In this document: positions 1-29,336 of the stretch, in pieces
Position numbering within the stretch: position 1 is the stretch's first letter
Layout: each line of letters opens with the position of its first letter
IMG/VR virus record: IMGVR_UViG_2667527976_000002
DNA: 31,378 nucleotides
Strand: one strand, 5' to 3'
From: a virus
Lineage: Duplodnaviria > Heunggongvirae > Uroviricota > Caudoviricetes
Position numbers and translations under genes: made by a program
The notes under the pieces: generated by a model
Told to the model about the DNA's origin: nothing
The model's input: only the letters and a program-made list of their open reading frames with translations
The model's database searches: none

Positions 1-160
1 TTTTTGATGATCGCGTCACCAAACTCGCTGAACATTTCAGCAGTTTAGCGCCTTCCATCAGACGTTCGAAGTCATAGGTTACAGTCTTGGCGTTGATCGC
101 GCCTTCCATACCTTTAACAATCAGGTCTGCGGCTTCAGTCCAGCCCATATGGCGCAGCAG
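1..160 (-). pseudogene. icd: Orphan 3' fragment of the isocitrate dehydrogenase gene (last ~53 codons); prophage attachment-site remnant
   Basis: Reverse-complement translation reads [44 protein letters not shown]..., matching the Icd C-terminal region. Similarity stops abruptly near 158 where AT-rich DNA begins, and no icd body follows. An apparent 2-nt insertion near 26-27 breaks the frame before the expected EFGDAII end (judged against my recollection of E. coli Icd). Confidence 0.6.
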
Positions 161-640
161 TATATAAAAACATTAAGTTTAAGTCATTGATATTTAATAA
201 TAAAAATTATTTTATTGTTTTTTTATTAGCCAAAATCAACTTTATTCAACCATTTGATTTCATTGACGTTCGTTTTTATTTTGGGGAAAGGTTTTATCTA
301 CCATTTATATCAAAATTACAAGTCTACATTTTATTAACATCTCAATACATGTGAGGCCTTGCAGACCTTTGCGAGAGCTTATGTGTCTCAGTTTTGTCCC
401 ACCTTTTATTACGACTTGCATAGCCAATGAAGATAAATGTAGTTAATGCCTGTTATGAGCGAGGAGTGGACGTAAAAGAATTTTTAAAAATTTAAGGCTT
501 ACTAAGGTAACAAGTATCAGAGAATCTCATGAACCTATTGCTGCGTCCTAGCAGAACGAAATTTCTCTCTACTTAATACTAAAATTGTTTTATATTTTTC
601 GTAGTCTTTTGTCACTAAGTTTGTTCGTACTTGATATAAT
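161..640. other. AT-rich non-coding region next to the att junction (possible attP arm remnant)
   Basis: No ORF of 60 aa or more on either strand; strongly AT-rich with A/T runs, adjacent to the end of icd homology. Assignment as an integrase/IHF-binding arm is inference only. Confidence 0.3.
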
Positions 641-642
641 TT

Positions 643-972
643 TTAAAAATGGCTTTCGAAATCTCGTTCGAATGTAGTAGGACTTACAACCAAATCATGT
701 ACAGCGTCAACTAAATGCTGTGCTAATGAATATTTGAATTGGAGTGACTGCAAGTTTTCTTTATTGATTAATTTATATTTATCAGGGTCCACAGTATTTC
801 CTTCATTATTGAAGGGATAGATCCATTGTCCATGTGCTAGCTTGTTTCGTATTTCTATCAGGATTCGTAGCTCATTCGACAAAACATCATGTAATGCTGC
901 TCTTCGTGCGGCATGTGCTATCCCAAGAGTCCTTTCATCCAGCAGGAAACAAACTAATCCCTGTTTTGGGCC
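643..972 (-). pseudogene. Truncated Abi-like protein fragment with HEPN-type Rx4HG motif
   Basis: Open frame without an ATG runs 972 to 643 (the track ORF begins at a TTG at 880-882). Translation contains ILIEIRNKLAHGQW, which fits the Rx4-6H HEPN motif common in abortive-infection proteins. The frame is closed by a stop at 973-975 immediately next to the sit promoter, so the N-terminal part is missing. Confidence 0.35.
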
Positions 973-980
973 TCAAAGAT

Positions 981-999
981 GTTAATGATAATCATTTTC
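981..999 (+). promoter_or_regulatory. Fur box upstream of sitA
   Basis: gttaatgataatcattttc matches the 19-bp Fur consensus GATAATGATAATCATTATC at 17 of 19 positions, about 80-95 nt upstream of the sitA start. Confidence 0.6.
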
Positions 1000-1021
1000 A
1001 TTCTGTATAGGTTATGCTATA

Positions 1022-1043
1022 AAACATAGCCGTTGCTATGTTT
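1022..1043 (+). promoter_or_regulatory. MntR operator upstream of sitA
   Basis: Perfect inverted repeat aaacatagc-cgtt-gctatgttt, the same palindrome type as the MntR site of mntH (AAACATAGC...GCTATGTTT), about 33 nt upstream of the sitA ATG. Confidence 0.6.
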
Positions 1044-1075
1044 GTTCTAATTTTGCTCACTATAGGTACTAAATT

Positions 1076-1990
1076 ATGCGCTCAATAAAAAAAGTAACCA
1101 TGCTCTTGGGGGGCCTCGCACTCACCTGCTCGATCGCATTTCAGGCAAGTGCAACTGAAAAATTCAAGGTCATTACAACATTTACCATCATCGCAGATAT
1201 GGCCAAAAACGTGGCTGGAGATGCTGCAGAAGTCTCATCCATAACCAAGCCCGGTGCAGAAATTCATGAGTATCAGCCTACCCCTGGCGATATTAAACGT
1301 GCGCAGGGGGCACAACTGATTCTCGCCAATGGTATGAATCTGGAATTGTGGTTCCAACGCTTTTACCAGCATCTTAATGGGGTTCCAGAAGTAATTGTCT
1401 CTTCGGGTGTGACGCCAGTAGGGATCACTGAAGGCCCCTATGAGGGCAAACCTAACCCCCATGCCTGGATGTCGCCAGATAATGCTCTGATTTACGTCGA
1501 TAATATTCGTGATGCGTTGATAAAATACGATCCGGCAAATGCACAAACCTACCAACGTAATGCCGATACTTATAAAGCCAAGATTACCCAAACCCTTGCC
1601 CCCCTGCGTAAGCAGATTGCTGAACTCCCTGAGAATCAGCGATGGATGGTCACCAGTGAAGGGGCTTTTTCTTATCTCGCACGCGATTTGGGGCTAAAAG
1701 AGCTTTATCTGTGGCCGATTAATGCCGATCAACAAGGCACGCCGCAGCAGGTACGTAAGGTTGTTGATATGGTGAAGAAAAATCATATCCCGGCAGTCTT
1801 TAGCGAGAGTACGATTTCCGATAAACCAGCGCGTCAGGTTGCGCGTGAAACCGGCGCGCACTACGGCGGTGTACTCTATGTCGATTCCCTGAGCACAGAA
1901 AACGGCCCGGTACCTACGTATATCGACCTTCTGAAGGTTACTACCAGTACGCTGGTACAGGGAATTAAAGCCGGGAAAAGGGAGAAATAA
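1076..1990 (+). CDS. sitA: Periplasmic Mn/Fe-binding protein of ABC transporter (cluster A-I / TroA-like), SitA
   Basis: 304-aa ORF with signal peptide ([26 protein letters not shown]); ATG start at 1076; stop overlaps the sitB start. Confidence 0.9.
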
Positions 1991-2817
1991 TGATGCAATC
2001 TGCGGGCATTGTCGTTAATGATGTTACTGTCACCTGGCGTAACGGGCACACAGCACTGCGCGATGCATCCTTCACAGTACCAAGTGGATCTATTGCCGCT
2101 CTGGTTGGGGTAAACGGTTCCGGAAAATCGACGTTGTTTAAAGCGATTATGGGATTTGTGCGTCTGACCAGCGGAAAGATATCTGTTCTGGGTATTCCCA
2201 CGCGACAGGCGCTACAGAAAAACCTGGTTGCCTACGTCCCTCAGTCAGAAGAGGTTGACTGGTCATTTCCTGTACTAGTGGAAGATGTGGTGATGATGGG
2301 CCGCTATGGGCACATGGGTATGTTGCGTATAGCCAAAAAGAGGGATCGTCAGATTGTCACCGATGCGCTGGAACGTGTCGATATGGTGGATTTTCGCCAT
2401 CGACAAATCGGCGAGCTTTCCGGTGGACAAAAGAAACGCGTCTTTCTGGCGAGAGCGATTGCACAGCAGGGTGATGTGATCCTGCTGGATGAACCTTTTA
2501 CCGGCGTTGATGTGAAAACCGAAGCGAAAATCATCAGCCTGTTGAGGGAGTTACGCGCGGAAGGCAAGACGATGCTTGTCTCAACGCACAATCTCGGCTC
2601 AGTCACGACATTTTGCGATTATACGGTCATGGTCAAAGGCACCGTCCTGGCAAGCGGGCCGACAGACACCACTTTTACAGCCGAGAACCTGGAGCTGGCT
2701 TTTAGCGGCGTACTGCGCCATGTCACACTTAACGGCTCGGAAGAAAGCATTATTACTGACGATGAACACCCTTTTGTGGCACATCGACCGTCAGCGGTGC
2801 AGGGGGAAGCAAGATGA
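1990..2817 (+). CDS. sitB: ABC transporter ATP-binding protein SitB
   Basis: 275 aa; Walker [13 protein letters not shown] signature LSGGQKKR, Walker B ILLDEP; start overlaps sitA stop (translational coupling). Confidence 0.9.
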
Positions 2818-3671
2818 ACGTGCTACTGGAACCCTTCAGCTATGAATATATGCTCAATGCGATGTGGGTCTCGGCGATGGTCGGCGGTCTCTGCGCTTTC
2901 CTGTCATGCTATCTGATGCTAAAAGGCTGGTCGCTGATTGGCGATGCGCTGTCGCACTCTATTGTCCCAGGTGTTGCGGGGGCATATATGCTGGGGCTTC
3001 CGTTTTCTCTGGGAGCCTTCTTTTCCGGCGGACTGGCAGCGGGCAGCATGCTGTTTCTTAACCAACGCACTCGCTTAAAAGAAGATGCCATCATCGGCCT
3101 GATCTTCTCCTCCTTTTTTGGCCTGGGGCTGTTTATGGTGTCATTGAACCCGACATCCGTGAACATTCAGACCATCGTCCTGGGCAATATTCTGGCAATC
3201 GATCCGGCGGATATCCTGCAACTCACTATCATTGGCATTCTCTCGATCATCGTGCTTTTTTTCAAATGGAAAGATCTTATGGTGACCTTTTTCGACGAGA
3301 ATCACGCTCGTGCTATTGGATTGCATCCGGGCAGATTAAAAATCCTCTTCTTCACCCTGCTGTCGGTTTCGACCGTTGCGGCGCTGCAAACGGTTGGTGC
3401 CTTTCTGGTGATCTGTCTGGTGGTGACTCCCGGTGCAACAGCATGGTTGTTAACCGATCGTTTTCCCCGCCTGCTCATAATTGCTGTAACTATTGGCAGT
3501 GTAACCAGTTTCCTCGGCGCGTGGGTCAGTTACTTTCTGGACGGCGCGACAGGTGGAATCATCGTGGTGGCGCAGACACTGCTGTTTCTTTTAGCATTTG
3601 TATTTGCGCCCACCCATGGGCTTTTGGCAAATCGTCGGCGTGCGCATAAAGCGCTGGAGGATCGCTCATGA
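2814..3671 (+). CDS. sitC: ABC transporter permease SitC
   Basis: 285-aa polytopic hydrophobic protein; start overlaps sitB stop by 4 nt. Confidence 0.9.
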
Positions 3672-4525
3672 TGGCATTATTACTGGAGCCACTGCAGTTC
3701 ACCTTTATGAGTCACGCACTGCTGATTTCACTGGTAGTTTCCATACCCTGTGCGCTGCTGTCGGTCTTTCTGGTCCTGAAAGGTTGGGCACTGATGGGTG
3801 ACGCGATGAGTCATGCGGTTTTTCCTGGCATCGTGCTTGCCTGGATTCTGGGGTTACCTCTGGCTACAGGGGCATTCGTCGCCGGAGTATTCTGCGCGGT
3901 GGCGACGGGATACCTGAAAGACAACAGCCGAATCAAGCAAGATACAGTGATGGGGATTGTTTTTTCTGGCATGTTTGCCGCAGGTCTGATCTTGTATATT
4001 GCAGTCAAACCAGACGTACATCTTGACCATATTCTTTTCGGCGACATGCTCGGGGTAACCATCGGCGATATAATCCAGACGGTGATTATTGCCGGGCTGG
4101 TTACACTTGTTATTAGCGTAAAATGGCGGGATTTTTTGCTGTTCAGCTTTGATTATCAACAGGCGCAGGTAAGCGGTTTGCATACGAGATGTCTGCATTA
4201 TGGGCTGCTGTGCATGGTCTCTCTGACCATTGTGGCGACGCTGAAAGCGGTAGGTATCATTCTCTCCATTTCTCTGCTCATTGCGCCTGGCGCCATTGCG
4301 GTACTCCTGACACAACGCTTTCATATTGCGCTCCTACTGGCGATTGGCATATCGGTAATAGTGTCAATGACTGGTGTCTGGTTGTCCTTTTTTATCGACA
4401 GTGCACCAGCTCCGACGATTGTCGTCTTATTCGCGGTTGTGTTCATCATGACGTTCACCGTTACCAGCATCAACGCACGCACAAAGGGAAACACCCATAC
4501 ACAGGATTTGTCATCACCCAATTAG
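3668..4525 (+). CDS. sitD: ABC transporter permease SitD
   Basis: 285-aa hydrophobic paralogue of SitC; ATGATG start overlaps sitC stop. Confidence 0.9.
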   Translation: MMALLLEPLQFTFMSHALLISLVVSIPCALLSVFLVLKGWALMGDAMSHAVFPGIVLAWILGLPLATGAFVAGVFCAVATGYLKDNSRIKQDTVMGIVFSGMFAAGLILYIAVKPDVHLDHILFGDMLGVTIGDIIQTVIIAGLVTLVISVKWRDFLLFSFDYQQAQVSGLHTRCLHYGLLCMVSLTIVATLKAVGIILSISLLIAPGAIAVLLTQRFHIALLLAIGISVIVSMTGVWLSFFIDSAPAPTIVVLFAVVFIMTFTVTSINARTKGNTHTQDLSSPN

Positions 4526-4689
4526 CACAACATCCGAGGGCAGCATCGTCCGCTGGCCCACAGAAGTCCGGAAAGTCATGGAAGGTCGTTGTTGGGAGGA
4601 GGTACAAATTCTCTCATGCAAAAAATACGTAAAATCGATAATAGCTGGAAATAATTCAATACATGCACTCTCGAAAGTGCATCAGCCAA

Positions 4690-4723
4690 CCGCAGAACGT
4701 TATTGCATACAACGTTTCTGCGG
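4690..4723. repeat. Imperfect palindrome (12/13-bp arms, 9-nt loop) in the sitD to tail-fibre spacer
   Basis: ccgcagaacgtt-attgcatac-aacgtttctgcgg; a second shorter palindrome atgcact-ctcgaa-agtgcat lies at 4663-4682. Neither is followed by a T-run on either strand. Confidence 0.4.
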
Positions 4724-4876
4724 CATAATCCCAATGATTACTCCCTGACAGGGTTCGTAGGCCACTCAATATCAGGTGCAGTTGATGTATCAACACGGTT
4801 CAGCAGCATCCGATACTTTTTCCAGGCTTCCAGCAACGGGGTTTCTTCCTCCGTTGCATATACAGCTCACCTTTTT

Positions 4877-5176
4877 TCACCCACGATTAACCAACAGCCA
4901 GACCAGCAGACACGCCACCACCGGCACAGCAAAATCCATCAGGCTTGCCACATCCCATGCACGTGTATCAAAACCGCCCCACCACGGCATATTCATTCGC
5001 TTGCCATGCCCGAACATTTCGATCCAGCGATATTCTGCCTGGGTGTGTTCACGCGCAATGAAGAACGTACAACCGGCTATCGCCCCGTAAGCCCAGTTCC
5101 CGGTAAAAAGACCAATCAGTAGCTGCGCAGCCACAGCACAAAGCGCATGAAGGAAAGGTGTTATATCCATTTTCAT
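4877..5176 (-). CDS. Hypothetical small membrane protein (about 97-99 aa, three hydrophobic segments)
   Basis: Track ORF 4877-5185 begins at a TTG. In-frame ATGs at 5174-5176 and 5168-5170 (the latter with AGGA 6 nt upstream) are more plausible starts. The product MKMDITPFLHALCAVAAQLLIGLF... is hydrophobic. Function not recognised. Confidence 0.35.
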   Translation of the reverse strand: MKMDITPFLHALCAVAAQLLIGLFTGNWAYGAIAGCTFFIAREHTQAEYRWIEMFGHGKRMNMPWWGGFDTRAWDVASLMDFAVPVVACLLVWLLVNRG

Positions 5177-6262: not shown

Positions 6263-6544
6263 TCACATCCAGCCACGAAGTTGATGCTCAACAGCAACCA
6301 CGTATTCATCGAATAATGACGATATTTGCGAATCATTAATGATGCGCACGTTTACAAAATATCCGTCTTCCTTAACACATACCGGTTCGCCATCTTCAGT
6401 CAGTTCTCCGGTTTCTTTGTACACGTTACCTATCACGTCGATAAGAATATCATCCTGCATCGACTCGTCATCATAATAGCCAATACTCTCCATAAAGGCC
6501 GAAAAGTCGGCCCTGTCTTCAAATTTGAGTGTTAAATCTTTCAT
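6263..6544 (-). CDS. Hypothetical small acidic protein (93 aa) encoded between the two fibre genes
   Basis: ATG at 6542-6544 overlaps the stf stop (TAATG); its stop lies 10 nt before the next gene; Asp/Glu-rich. Function not recognised. Confidence 0.55.
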   Translation of the reverse strand: MKDLTLKFEDRADFSAFMESIGYYDDESMQDDILIDVIGNVYKETGELTEDGEPVCVKEDGYFVNVRIINDSQISSLFDEYVVAVEHQLRGWM

Positions 6545-8943
6545 TAGATTGACTCCCCCATTTGTGCCTCAGTTAATTCTTTATGCCAAATGCGTAAATT
6601 TTTCACATGACCGAACAGGTGTCTGTTGCCACTGGATGATTGTCCACCGATATTAATATTACCGGCAGTATAACGTTGCAATGTATGCAGAGACGGGGAG
6701 CTGCCACCTAAAATTCCATCAACAACAACCTGCAACTGTTTATCTTCTGTAAACTTAAAGCCAGTAACAAATTTCCTTTTCTCTCTATTCCCATATGCTT
6801 TATATTCTGTTTTTGTTCCTTTGCCATTGGTGATAATTAGCCTTTTACCACGAGTGGTAAAACCAAAATACATATAACTTTCATCAGAAACTTCAGTCGT
6901 CGCCCCTGTAATTGAGATATTAAGCAAACGCGCAGAGCCTTCTAAATTAGGCATTTCAGAATCCCAATTAACATTAACTTCCATGAGAACACTAACTGGT
7001 GGAGTTGCCCAATTGAAAGGTATAGGTATGATTACCTGGTCACTTGCTCTCGTGGCACCGACCTCTGTTGTGATGATAAAAGATGACGCGTTTAGTCCCT
7101 TTTCGAATTGAGGGGTTGTTAACATTAATTTATCGCCAGACTTGATTGATCGTTGATGTGCTCCAAACTCAAAACGCCCATACATATTTTTTGCTTCTGG
7201 TGATTTGTAGGTAAACTCAACACGAATCCATCCATTAGACTCTCTGAATATGTTATAAGTTGCCGCCTCACCTCCAGAATAACTCAACATATCGCCAGTC
7301 TCGCAATCAATATATGCGCCAGCGGTCAGTGTGTTACTTGAGCCATCGTCGTTAACATATGATATTCTTGGACGCAACGTGATAATACCATCCCCACTTA
7401 CTTTTTTAACTCTGCAGGATAAAGTAACTGATTCATTTGCCGAAACTGAAATAACCCTGGTATATCCAGTAGAAATTAATGTCGCCCTTTCAGTTGTGGA
7501 TGTTTCTTTAACGCCAAACAAACCATAACTGAAACCATACTCATCAACTCCCGTGGTAATAGTTAAGTTAGCAGTGTCATAGTTCCACGATACTGGTGTA
7601 TTCGTATAAGAAAAAGTATTCGTTCTCTGACCTTCAATGAGCAGACCATCTTTTTCAAAACGTGGTTCATTTATCGCTGATTCAGCAAAACACCCAGACT
7701 TATCTATATACGTTGCAGTTGACGCCCTGGTAAATGAAACAACCTTTTCAGACGGCAATGCAATAACATCGTCACCAACTGTGATGCTCTTATATCCAGG
7801 AGCAAACCCGGTAATCATATCCAGTGAATCGTTAAACGGTATCCACACCTCAGGTAACGGCTGTAAGACATATTTATACGGCTCCGCAGCCTGGCTTGCG
7901 TACTCTCTGGCTGCATCTTCGCTTGCTTTAGCTGCCGTCTGGCTTGCTGCCGATGCTTTCGCTGAGTTCGCAGCCGCTGTTTCGCTCGCCTTTGCGTTGG
8001 TTTCACTGGTTTTTGCTGCTTTTTGACTGTTAGCTGATGCAGTGGCAGAAGCAGCCGCCGCACTTGCAGAACCAGCTGCAGCACTCTCGCTTTCAGCTGC
8101 TGCAGCCTGACTACTTTTCGCCGCAGTTTCACTGGCTTTGGCATTCGTTTCGCTGGTCTTCGCTGCTGTCTGGCTGGACTTTGCGTTAGTTTCACTCGTC
8201 TTCGCAGCTTTCTGGCTGTTAGCCGCAGCAGTTGCTGATCCGGCTGCTGAAGTCGCAGAACCGGCCGCCGCACTCTCGCTTTCAGCTGCTGCATCCTGAC
8301 TGCTTTTCGCCGCAGTTTCACTGGCTTTGGCATTCGTTTCGCTGGTTTTCGCTGCCGTCTGGCTGGACTTCGCGTTGGTTTCGCTCGTCTTTGCGGCTGT
8401 CTCACTGTTTTTCGCGTTGGTTTCTGATTTTTTGGCTGCAGTCGCGGAGTTTGCCGATGCAGTCTGTGAGGCCGCTGCCGCCTGTGCGCTGTTAGCTGCG
8501 TTCGTTTCTGAGGTTTTCGCCGCGTTCTTCGATGATGCCGCTGCTGTTTCGGATTTCTTTGCCGCCGCTGCGCTCTGAGAGGCGGCTTCAGCGTTGCGTG
8601 CCGCTTCTTCCACCATTTCCTCAAAACGACGCAATGCCTCCGGCATGACATCATCTTCCGTCATGGCACCGAGAAAATCATTCAGCGTCCCCGGCTTAGA
8701 ATCTTCATACACGGTGATGGTCCCGGCATGTGAAGGCGGAAAACCTTCAACCAGCAGGATAACGCTGTACTGGCCATACTCAACATCCATGCTGTAACGC
8801 CCGGCTTCATCCGGATTTTCAGAGGCCACCGTGTTCACCAGTACCGTGGTGCTGTTACGCTTTGCCTTCAGTTGAATAGTGCAGTTCTGTATTGGTTTTC
8901 CCGCACCATCTTTCAGCACACCTGAGATTTTTACTGCTGCCAT
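6544..8943 (-). CDS. stf: Side tail fibre protein Stf: lambda-like N-terminus, Ala/Ser/Thr-rich repeat shaft, non-lambda C-terminal domain (LamG-like tip)
   Basis: N-terminus MAAVKISGVLKDGAGKPIQNCTIQLKAKRNSTTV... matches recalled lambda Stf. The track ORF starts at a GTG at 8947-8949; the ATG at 8941-8943 gives the lambda-like start. The C-terminus ...NINIGGQSSSGNRHLFGHVKNLRIWHKELTEAQMGESI resembles laminin-G/concanavalin-type lectin folds. Confidence 0.85.
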   Translation of the reverse strand: MAAVKISGVLKDGAGKPIQNCTIQLKAKRNSTTVLVNTVASENPDEAGRYSMDVEYGQYSVILLVEGFPPSHAGTITVYEDSKPGTLNDFLGAMTEDDVMPEALRRFEEMVEEAARNAEAASQSAAAAKKSETAAASSKNAAKTSETNAANSAQAAAASQTASANSATAAKKSETNAKNSETAAKTSETNAKSSQTAAKTSETNAKASETAAKSSQDAAAESESAAAGSATSAAGSATAAANSQKAAKTSETNAKSSQTAAKTSETNAKASETAAKSSQAAAAESESAAAGSASAAAASATASANSQKAAKTSETNAKASETAAANSAKASAASQTAAKASEDAAREYASQAAEPYKYVLQPLPEVWIPFNDSLDMITGFAPGYKSITVGDDVIALPSEKVVSFTRASTATYIDKSGCFAESAINEPRFEKDGLLIEGQRTNTFSYTNTPVSWNYDTANLTITTGVDEYGFSYGLFGVKETSTTERATLISTGYTRVISVSANESVTLSCRVKKVSGDGIITLRPRISYVNDDGSSNTLTAGAYIDCETGDMLSYSGGEAATYNIFRESNGWIRVEFTYKSPEAKNMYGRFEFGAHQRSIKSGDKLMLTTPQFEKGLNASSFIITTEVGATRASDQVIIPIPFNWATPPVSVLMEVNVNWDSEMPNLEGSARLLNISITGATTEVSDESYMYFGFTTRGKRLIITNGKGTKTEYKAYGNREKRKFVTGFKFTEDKQLQVVVDGILGGSSPSLHTLQRYTAGNINIGGQSSSGNRHLFGHVKNLRIWHKELTEAQMGESI
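8020..8397. repeat. Tandem direct repeat (2 copies of ~189 bp plus a partial third) inside stf
   Basis: Near-identical DNA blocks (for example 8088-8215 versus 8268-8395) encode the 63-aa unit AAKTSETNAKSSQTAAKTSETNAKASETAAKSSQ(D/A)AAAESESAAAGSA...ANSQK twice, with nested ~14-aa sub-repeats. Confidence 0.7.
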
Positions 8944-8954
8944 ATCCACTCCAC

Positions 8955-9007: not shown

Positions 9008-9607
9008 TCAGAACTTATAACCGACACCCACGATGAAACCGTCAGTGCGCCAGTCACCACTGCCGGAGCCTTCATAAGCAATATCAATGGCCACGGATTC
9101 GGTCGGGTTAAACTGCACGCCAGCTCCCCACGCCAGAGACGTGTTGCTGTGGCGACCGTCATCACTTCCGGTCAGCACATCGTGCGTTTTCCCCTTGTTG
9201 TCAGTTACGCGGAGGTAATCCCCGGAAAAAGTCGAAACACGGCTGTAAGCCATACCCGCCATCGCATACGCGCTGAACCATTCATTCACGCGCACAGACG
9301 GCCCCGCCATCACGCTGAACCAGCGGTTACGCACGGAATCTTTATGCCAGCGGGTATCGCTGTAACGGGTCAGCTGACGATTCTTGTATCCTGCATAACT
9401 GAATGACGTCACCAGCCCCAGCGTGTCCGTAAATTCATAACGGTATTTCACGTTAATGCCCTTCAGGTCATCACTGCCTGGCATATCAGTATGGGTCTGA
9501 AGATACCCGGCGCTTAGTGTGGACTGATGCTCTGCTGCGCTCGCTGGCGTACCAGCGGCAACCAGCCAGACTACTGCGGACAGAATAACAGCACATAATT
9601 TACGCAT
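9008..9607 (-). CDS. lom: Outer-membrane protein Lom (Ail/Lom family beta-barrel)
   Basis: 199 aa with signal peptide MRKLCAVILSAVVWLVAAGTPASA; body closely matches recalled lambda Lom; ATG at 9605-9607. Confidence 0.9.
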   Translation of the reverse strand: MRKLCAVILSAVVWLVAAGTPASAAEHQSTLSAGYLQTHTDMPGSDDLKGINVKYRYEFTDTLGLVTSFSYAGYKNRQLTRYSDTRWHKDSVRNRWFSVMAGPSVRVNEWFSAYAMAGMAYSRVSTFSGDYLRVTDNKGKTHDVLTGSDDGRHSNTSLAWGAGVQFNPTESVAIDIAYEGSGSGDWRTDGFIVGVGYKF

Positions 9608-28542: not shown

Positions 28543-28554
28543 AGGTCGCCGCCC
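28543..28554 (-). other. cosN: 12-nt cohesive-end sequence GGGCGGCGACCT (minus strand)
   Basis: Exact lambda cohesive-end 12-mer; flanking sequence matches both lambda ends (...CGACAGGTTACG on one side, CGCGGGTTTTCGCTATTTATGAAAATTTTCCGG on the other). Confidence 0.85.
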
Positions 28555-29032
28555 CGTAACCTGTCGGATCGCCGGAAAGGACCCGTTGGCCGTTCTGGTC
28601 TACTTCGTAATGGGATTTAATAGCTGAACGACAAAAGTCTTGCGACCACAGTCACACAGACCTGAATACACGTCCTGTTTCTTCCACCCCCGCACAGGAC
28701 TGGCGAGCATGAGGGCCCCCCCCCCGCGAACCATAAACGCGGTAAAAACCCGGTGTGCATCGTTTTTGATTATTCCCGCACACTCACGCAGAAGGAATTC
28801 CCCGTCGGGCTACGGTCATGGTTAATGCGGGAATACGGCGACGATACAGCGCAGCTAAAAGGGTAATGGACAGATAGAGCGGTTTATTTCATTCCACAGG
28901 ATTCTGAGTGCCTCCCTCCTCCAATAGGCTGAGCATCCACCTATATAGTTTTAATTTTCATCAATCCATTTAACTATCGTTTAATTGTTGTCACATAGGA
29001 TTCTGCCGTTTTTAACAATGCAGGATAATAAG

Positions 29033-29326
29033 ATGAAAAAAATGTTGTTTTCTGCCGCTCTGGCAATGCTTATTACAGGATGTGCTCAACAGACGTTTAC
29101 TGTTGGAAACAAACCGACAGCAGTAACACCAAAGGAAACCATCACCCATCATTTCTTCGTTTCGGGAATTGGACAGGAGAAAACTGTTGATGCAGCCAAA
29201 ATTTGTGGCGGCGCAGAAAATGTTGTTAAAACAGAAACCCAGCAAACATTCGTAAATGGATTGCTCGGTTTTATTACTTTAGGCATTTATACTCCGCTGG
29301 AAGCGCGTGTCTATTGCTCACAATAA
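29033..29326 (+). CDS. bor: Bor lipoprotein (Bor/Iss family, serum-resistance associated)
   Basis: 97 aa from the ATG at 29033, MKKMLFSAALAMLITGCAQQTFTV... with lipobox ITGC; the track ORF has a 16-codon upstream extension; opposite strand to the late genes as in lambda. Confidence 0.85.
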   Translation: MKKMLFSAALAMLITGCAQQTFTVGNKPTAVTPKETITHHFFVSGIGQEKTVDAAKICGGAENVVKTETQQTFVNGLLGFITLGIYTPLEARVYCSQ

Positions 29327-29336
29327 TTGCATGAGT

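Follow-up and report, generated by a model that had tools for sequence, protein, structure and literature searches.

This report concerns sitABCD, a predicted manganese and iron uptake operon located near one end of a 31,378-nucleotide (nt) stretch of viral DNA (Caudoviricetes; IMG/VR virus record IMGVR_UViG_2667527976_000002), to which we will refer as the window and whose positions are used throughout. The operon lies between a remnant of the bacterial gene icd and the tail genes of a lambda-like prophage, and comprises four genes:

1076-1990, plus strand: sitA, periplasmic manganese/iron-binding protein (Pfam ZnuA, PF01297, E = 2.4e-86; YfeA, 5uxs, E = 1e-124; SitA in RefSeq)
1990-2817, plus strand: sitB, ATPase (equivalog NF011630, 589.6 bits)
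2814-3671, plus strand: sitC, permease (match to the metal ABC permease family; RefSeq name)
3668-4525, plus strand: sitD, permease (match to the metal ABC permease family; RefSeq name)

The gene junctions read TAATG, ATGA and ATGA, and therefore every sit stop codon overlaps the start codon that follows it. The order of the genes, with a substrate-binding protein followed by an ATPase and two permeases, fits a manganese/iron ABC importer of the SitABCD/YfeABCD type. Indeed, SitB clears the curated NCBIfam equivalog for manganese/iron ABC ATPases (NF011630) with 589.6 bits against a cut-off of 393, and SitA is a binding protein of the ZnuA/TroA type, for which solved structures of Yersinia pestis YfeA were matched at E = 1e-124. 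In the alignment of SitA with the YfeA structure 5uxs the EIH(E/D) and YVDSLS metal-ligand motifs are kept, the ligands of YfeA presumably being two histidines, a glutamate and an aspartate. RefSeq gives the names sitA to sitD to identical genes in many strains, and many strains have the four open reading frames (ORFs), all of them intact, at 100% identity. SitABCD imports Mn2+ and Fe2+ in Salmonella, Shigella and avian pathogenic Escherichia coli (review PMC3852070), and the operon in the window probably has the same function.

The placement of the operon inside the phage genome follows from the sequences on its two sides, in which four features are relevant:

1-160, minus strand: native 3' end of icd, displaced and now a pseudogene, which marks the attachment (att) junction on its bacterial side; annotated by RefSeq as an incomplete isocitrate dehydrogenase in the near-identical strain UPEC132
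144-160: crossover interval (att core); bacterial and phage sequence last differ at 143, and the homology to icd extends as far as 160
161-540: AT-rich phage arm beside the att site, 29.5% GC, identical in phage 4A7
4738-4857, minus strand: 3' remnant of the tail-fibre assembly gene tfa, annotated by RefSeq as a pseudogene and about 90% identical to the terminal part of lambda tfa

The 3' end of icd is duplicated at this junction, a replacement copy being supplied by the phage. When the icd remnant of the window is aligned with the phage-borne copy in 4A7, scattered differences occur up to position 143, and from there onward through 1100 the two are essentially identical; since icd homology ends at 160, the crossover falls within 144-160 and everything to the right of it, including sit, is phage DNA. 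Positions 1-440 of the window, which include the icd segment, match phage 1H12 at 92%. The linear genome of the isolated phage Lambda_4A7 holds int, the icd 3' copy (attP), the AT-rich arm, sitABCD and the tail fibres in this order, while in UPEC132 the bacterial genes ymgL and ycgX start directly to the left of the icd remnant. Altogether 27 phage records (4A7, 1H12, ev207 and others) carry sit beside attP at 97.9-99.2% identity, counting those in which sit was matched over at least 80% of its length. On the other side of the operon, positions 4688-4858 align with lambda 22608-22437, a segment made up of the final 120 nt of tfa and a further 51 nt, which places sit in the position of the b region and makes it convergent with the late operon; lambda itself has ea47 and the remaining b-region genes at this place. 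The GC content is 50.6% in sit, whereas the sequence on the left of the operon has 30-36% and that on the right 46.8%. The operon thus shows the features of a moron: it lies inside the packaged genome of isolated phages at a place where lambda has other genes, it is on the strand opposite to the late genes, it has operators of its own and it deviates in composition.

These results agree with an earlier note on this DNA, which had described a complete and translationally coupled sitABCD operon between the tail-fibre genes and the att junction, in the b-region position and opposite to the late operon. The intact ORFs from 1076 to 4525 with stop/start overlaps at all three junctions bear out the first part of this description, and the icd, tfa-end and lambda alignments the second. 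The same note had named a wrong att junction, with sit lying outside the prophage, as the way in which its reading might fail, and the alignment with 4A7 puts sit inside.

Upstream of sitA we find a group of operator-like elements:

981-999, plus strand: Fur box GTTAATGATAATCATTTTC, 17/19 to the 19-bp consensus
995-1023, plus strand: candidate sigma-70 promoter with a putative -35 element TTTTCA (995-1000), a 17-nt spacer and a putative -10 element TATAAA (1018-1023)
1007-1020, plus strand: second, imperfect MntR-type palindrome ATAGGTTATGCTAT (ATAGG-TTAT-GCTAT)
1022-1043, plus strand: MntR box AAACATAGC-CGTT-GCTATGTTT, an inverted repeat of the form AAACATAGC-N4-GCTATGTTT with perfect arms

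Both the Fur box, at 17/19, and the perfect MntR palindrome had been pointed out in the earlier note, and both hold up. The Fur box is the sole site with three or fewer mismatches in the 31-kb window, where 0.00 such sites are expected and shuffled sequences yielded none, and its position is conserved across genera. The MntR palindrome, situated between the candidate promoter and the start codon, has 0 arm mismatches (0.02 such sites expected) and is likewise conserved across genera; the imperfect palindrome precedes it at a distance of 19 bp from centre to centre. For this comparison we used the sequences upstream of sitA in Phytobacter, Enterobacter, Buttiauxella, Shimwellia, Erwinia, Salmonella, Citrobacter, Raoultella and Atlantibacter, whose SitA proteins are 74-87% identical. 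All of them share the order of a Fur-like box followed by ATAGC-N4-GCTAT palindromes, while the flanks cannot be aligned, and the ATAGC-N4-GCTAT core is kept upstream of sitA in 10 enterobacterial genera. The tandem pair of palindromes is conserved across these ten genera as well; its upstream member is mostly perfect in the other genera and degenerate in the phage and plasmid copies of E. coli. Enterobacterial sit promoters carry a conserved three-part operator, which consists of a Fur box and two tandem ATAGC-N4-GCTAT palindromes 19 bp apart, and on sequence grounds the operators belong to the sit operon and not to the phage.

The candidate promoter was proposed from a reading of the sequence together with the blocks conserved in the cross-genus upstream alignment. 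With this placement the Fur box would lie over the -35 element, the first palindrome over the spacer and the second palindrome over the start region. Repression of sitABCD by Mn-MntR and by Fur, as well as a contribution of sit to virulence, has been reported (PMC3852070, PMC8970401), and iron- and Fur-dependent repression was seen with a Salmonella sitA-lacZ fusion (PMC8970401). Control of sit by MntR and Fur is already established in Salmonella and Shigella, although Mathieu et al. 2020 (PMC6969025) make no mention of an MntR box on phage-borne sit copies. By analogy, the copy in the window is probably repressed by Fur and MntR too.

To the right of the operon, the tfa remnant is followed by a small hypothetical gene and then by the structural genes of the phage:

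5213-28365, minus strand: tail-fibre genes and a complete late operon of the lambda type (J, I, K, L, M, H, T, G, V, U, Z, FII, FI, E, D, C, B, W, A, Nu1), lom being interspersed (from ORF lengths and the annotation of UPEC132)
28543-28554, minus strand: lambda cohesive-end (cos) sequence GGGCGGCGACCT, found as a sequence match

The late genes have the lengths of their lambda counterparts, and many isolated lambda-like phages match the late region at 95-96% identity. The whole 49-kb prophage can be followed up to an intact icd in the near-identical UPEC132, and it includes lysis genes, Q, the nin region, O/P, cro, the repressor, the red genes, xis and int. With full-length late genes and cos present, the structural genes are apparently intact within the window, as had been noted before, and the accompanying expectation that the operon would be mobilisable is borne out by published work on relatives: sit-carrying lambda phages have been isolated as plaque formers, and the prophage Perceval of strain LF82 makes virions.

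Several further observations concern this half of the prophage. The side tail-fibre gene (6544-8949, minus strand) is an intact ORF of 801 amino acids here, compared with three annotated pieces in UPEC132. The same prophage carries other morons, namely a gene for an outer-membrane protein of the lom/ail family (9008-9607, minus strand), a serum-survival lipoprotein gene of the iss/bor type (29034-29327, plus strand) and the start of an OmpC/NmpC-type porin gene, which runs from about 31208 to the end of the window (plus strand). A run of ten C residues at 28717-28726, between cos and iss/bor, could be a slippage-prone tract or a weak point of the assembly.

We therefore read the window as that half of a lambda-like prophage which adjoins attL, the prophage being integrated in the 3' end of E. 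coli icd and having its b region occupied by a host-regulated sitABCD moron, and we give this reading a probability of roughly 0.93. The prophage is of the kind now classed as Bievrevirus/Jouyvirus, whose relatives include phage 4A7 and the LF82 prophage Perceval. In a lysogen, sitABCD would be transcribed from its own promoter, independently of the phage late operon and convergently with it. Host Fur (with Fe2+) and MntR (with Mn2+) would bind the operators, and as these overlap the promoter, we propose that sit is expressed in the lysogen only under scarcity of both iron and manganese. The SitABCD importer, composed of a binding protein, an ATPase and two permeases, would then take up Mn2+ and Fe2+ in the lysogen. 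Finally, because sit is situated between attP and the tail genes, it would be packaged in every virion and passed on by lysogeny.

Some points weigh against this reading. The immunity and integration half of the prophage lies beyond the window and is seen only in the near-identical UPEC132, so the present copy is presumed, on that model, to be inducible. A consensus promoter scan picked no sit promoter, missing the candidate because its -10 element ends in A; the proposed promoter is accordingly a putative one. A terminator scan and folding yielded no intrinsic terminator with a U-tract after sitD, and for the function of the operators the argument draws on reviews and a later Salmonella paper.

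Among the alternatives, the proposal of a misassigned att junction, with sit belonging to a neighbouring island and not to the prophage, has practically no probability left. No point in its support was found, and it is refuted by the alignment with 4A7 and by the genome order of isolated phages, in which int is followed by the icd copy at attP, then by the AT-rich arm shared with the window, by sitABCD and finally by the tail fibres; moreover, the icd remnant is directly adjoined on its left by the bacterial genes ymgL and ycgX. It is also very improbable that the operators have lost their function and that sit is not expressed. The imperfect upstream MntR-type palindrome of this copy would suit such an interpretation, but the boxes are kept across genera while the surrounding sequence is not, the downstream MntR box is perfect, none of the four ORFs is broken and many strains share them at 100% identity, and sit is transcribed in an LF82 lysogen. 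More weight, if still little, is due to the possibility that this particular prophage copy is defective (cryptic), in which case sit would be a fixed island of the PAI-CFT073-icdA type, moved only by recombination, by generalised or lateral transduction, or by plasmids. The icd island of CFT073 has indeed been described as cryptic prophage sequence (PMC2639426), and Perceval is the least-produced virion of LF82, with half of its packaged DNA deriving from lateral transduction by a neighbouring phage (PMC9928086); the fragmented side tail-fibre gene of UPEC132 and the location of the regulatory half of the prophage outside the window point in the same direction. Against this, every late gene of the window has its full length, the 801-residue side tail fibre included, cos is intact, the int, xis, repressor, replication, Q and lysis genes of UPEC132 are free of annotated pseudogenes, and close relatives form plaques. 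We thus regard a defective copy as improbable and prefer a functional lambda-like prophage.

A separate question is how the operon reached its present position, for which the sequence directly to the left of it has to be considered:

541-942, minus strand: pseudogene of a small HEPN-like (Rx4H) protein (from tblastn and an alignment to homologues of 160-181 amino acids)

The pseudogene covers residues 44-177 of its homologues (numbered on the reference P0004), the N-terminal 43 codons or so being gone, and has an in-frame TAA at 640-642. The homologues come from metagenomes and form a family of about 180 amino acids, in which the motif RNKLAHGQW (Rx4H) is invariant in 18 sequences. An Abi or HEPN family could not be assigned to the pseudogene: Pfam gave no match, and the best PADLOC hit was Csx1/Csm6 (CARF+HEPN) at E = 0.017. 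Likewise, a profile search of the PDB with the family returned nothing relevant, and a fold search with its confident, all-helical predicted model found only generic fold matches. Among 5.8 billion proteins there is no intact close copy of the gene, and the E. coli versions are all truncated. The neighbourhood of one full-length homologue (L005), which includes an adjoining SduA_C (Shedu) gene, was inspected and was not decisive. The earlier note had stated that the operon abuts a truncated abi-like ORF; a truncated pseudogene indeed ends at the sit junction, its homology stopping exactly where that of the sit cassette begins, but its identity as abi did not receive backing from any profile or fold match, and "abi-like" is a motif-level guess taken from the Rx4H motif.

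The extent of the transferred unit can be seen from phages and plasmids that share it:

940-4554, plus strand: sit cassette common to IncF/ColV-type plasmids at 98% identity (plasmid matches)
4572-4707: 136-nt lambdoid intergenic sequence, 84.6% identical to 1H12 (L003, 3827-3958)

Phage matches to the cassette span 939-4545 or 900-4545, and lambda phages and IncF plasmids agree in the ends of a sit cassette of about 3.67 kb. The comparison with other sit loci that had been suggested for this operon, covering phages, plasmids and other genera, thus gives conserved cassette ends (940-4554) along with the conserved operator layout described above. The 136-nt sequence, which occurs near the ends of many lambdoid and Shiga toxin (Stx) phages, is found on the right-hand side of sit in the window and on its left-hand side in 1H12. 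The 255 bases to the right of sit (4546-4800) are missing from 4A7 and 1H12, and 1H12 and the IncF plasmids share 56 more cassette bases to the left of 940, 1H12 being devoid of the abi remnant. The window, 4A7 and 1H12 therefore represent three combinations of left and right junctions. Among 5426 complete E. coli genomes, sit was found in 2337 (43%), the arrangement of icd remnant, sit and tfa remnant in 1264, and the junction between the abi-like remnant and sit in 296. A scan of genome contigs gave Phytobacter as the nearest chromosomal SitA (87% identity) and no E. coli sit locus, the species representative of E. coli being one that lacks sit.

Two candidates for RNA genes in this region may be mentioned here. 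The 136-nt sequence contains a hairpin resembling a T-arm and was considered as a transfer RNA or another known RNA; this was rejected, since ARAGORN found none and its folding is unremarkable (z = -1.9). The only Rfam hit is a sub-threshold match, inside the tfa remnant, to the candidate small RNA IS009 (4781-4879, minus strand; 62.8 bits, gathering score 117).

The earlier note had further suggested that the cassette arrived by illegitimate recombination, the junction with the truncated ORF being taken as its trace. If so, the junction at 939-942 would be the original acquisition scar, left when sit entered an Abi-type defence gene. The exactness of the junction does speak for this: homology to the full-length relatives of the truncated gene stops at 942 and the sit homology of plasmids and 1H12 starts at the same point, at 940 and 939, respectively, and no intact close copy of the gene was met with, the E. 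coli versions being truncated. The 56 additional bases in 1H12, which lacks the remnant, and in the IncF plasmids imply, however, that the cassette existed with a longer left end, and the junction is confined to 296 of the 2337 genomes with sit, far fewer than the 1264 with the arrangement of icd remnant, sit and tfa remnant; both facts favour a later rearrangement over an arrival event. Left and right junction types, moreover, reassort among phages as would be expected from homologous exchange and secondary deletions, and the Abi identity itself is without backing from profile and fold searches. An acquisition scar is accordingly unlikely, though somewhat less so than a defective prophage copy. 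Of the earlier claim the exact junction at a truncated ORF is thus retained and its role in the arrival of the cassette is not. From the distribution of the sequences, the junction is more likely a lineage-specific later rearrangement, and the overall pattern fits module shuffling by homologous recombination accompanied by secondary deletions. A combined proposal, in which the degenerate upstream palindrome might tune the manganese response and sit might have entered as a circular intermediate through homologous recombination of the Campbell type, with alternative deletions afterwards (which the shared cassette ends and the changing side of the 136-nt sequence would fit), is speculative and in our view probably wrong as a whole. 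The tandem operators and the shared cassette ends may already have been described in the primary literature.

Phage-borne sitABCD is already known from earlier publications. Of the lambda phages that Mathieu et al. 2020 obtained from infant-gut E. coli, 70% had sitABCD, always together with a Fur box, and these authors regarded the operon as a moron; their temperate coliphages had been isolated as plaque formers (PMC6969025). Misson et al. 2023 reported that sitA to sitD of the LF82 prophage Perceval are transcribed 4-13 fold above the prophage background, and they quantified and isolated Perceval virions (PMC9928086). In these lambda-like coliphages (4A7, 1H12, ev207 and others) and in Perceval, the operon is about 98% identical to that of the window; it is likewise situated between attP (icd) and the tail fibres, and it has the same Fur box. 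In 4A7 the att arm and the junction with the abi-like remnant are identical to those of the window, the late operon of the sit-carrying lambda-like phages is 95-96% identical, and one published tail primer for Perceval matches the window exactly. The window differs from 4A7 and 1H12 in keeping the extra segment 4546-4800 and in having a different distal tail-fibre module.

A prophage-type island with sit at icd is likewise represented by PAI-CFT073-icdA, in E. coli that cause disease outside the intestine (ExPEC), and by the "PAI sit" of S. flexneri and E. coli. In the literature the sit island is said to vary and to undergo rearrangement through homologous recombination (Lloyd 2007 and Fisher 2009, as cited in PMC2639426 and PMC7545054). 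While these loci are described as an island or a cryptic prophage, the late half in the window looks complete. The ColV/IncF virulence plasmids share the cassette 940-4554 at 98% with an identical MntR box, but their sit is flanked by IS1 and colicin genes instead of phage DNA, its Fur box is slightly more diverged and its promoter spacer has a 2-nt deletion. Salmonella SPI-1 sitABCD and Yersinia yfeABCD agree with the window in gene order and transporter family and differ in their context, which is a chromosomal island and not a phage. Salmonella sit also has the same layout of Fur operator followed by MntR operator, and SitA of S. enterica subsp. arizonae is about 75% identical to that of the window; Yersinia is without MntR (review PMC3852070). 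In addition, the record of Salmonella phage SPF_0923 (ON032529.1) carries sit at 99% identity beside uspF and an ompN-type gene, and gives the impression of a prophage prediction that includes bacterial flanking DNA, inserted at another site.

Given the studies of Mathieu et al. 2020 and Misson et al. 2023 and the named icd island of CFT073, the finding itself is already known, and since sit is present in 43% of complete E. coli genomes and on isolated and sequenced phages, the window adds an instance and not a discovery. For annotation, sit beside an icd remnant marks the end of a lambda-like prophage. Biologically, the window is a case of lysogenic conversion of the textbook kind, as already recognised, in which a temperate phage would spread a host-regulated operon for metal uptake and virulence among ExPEC, adherent-invasive E. 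coli and commensal E. coli.

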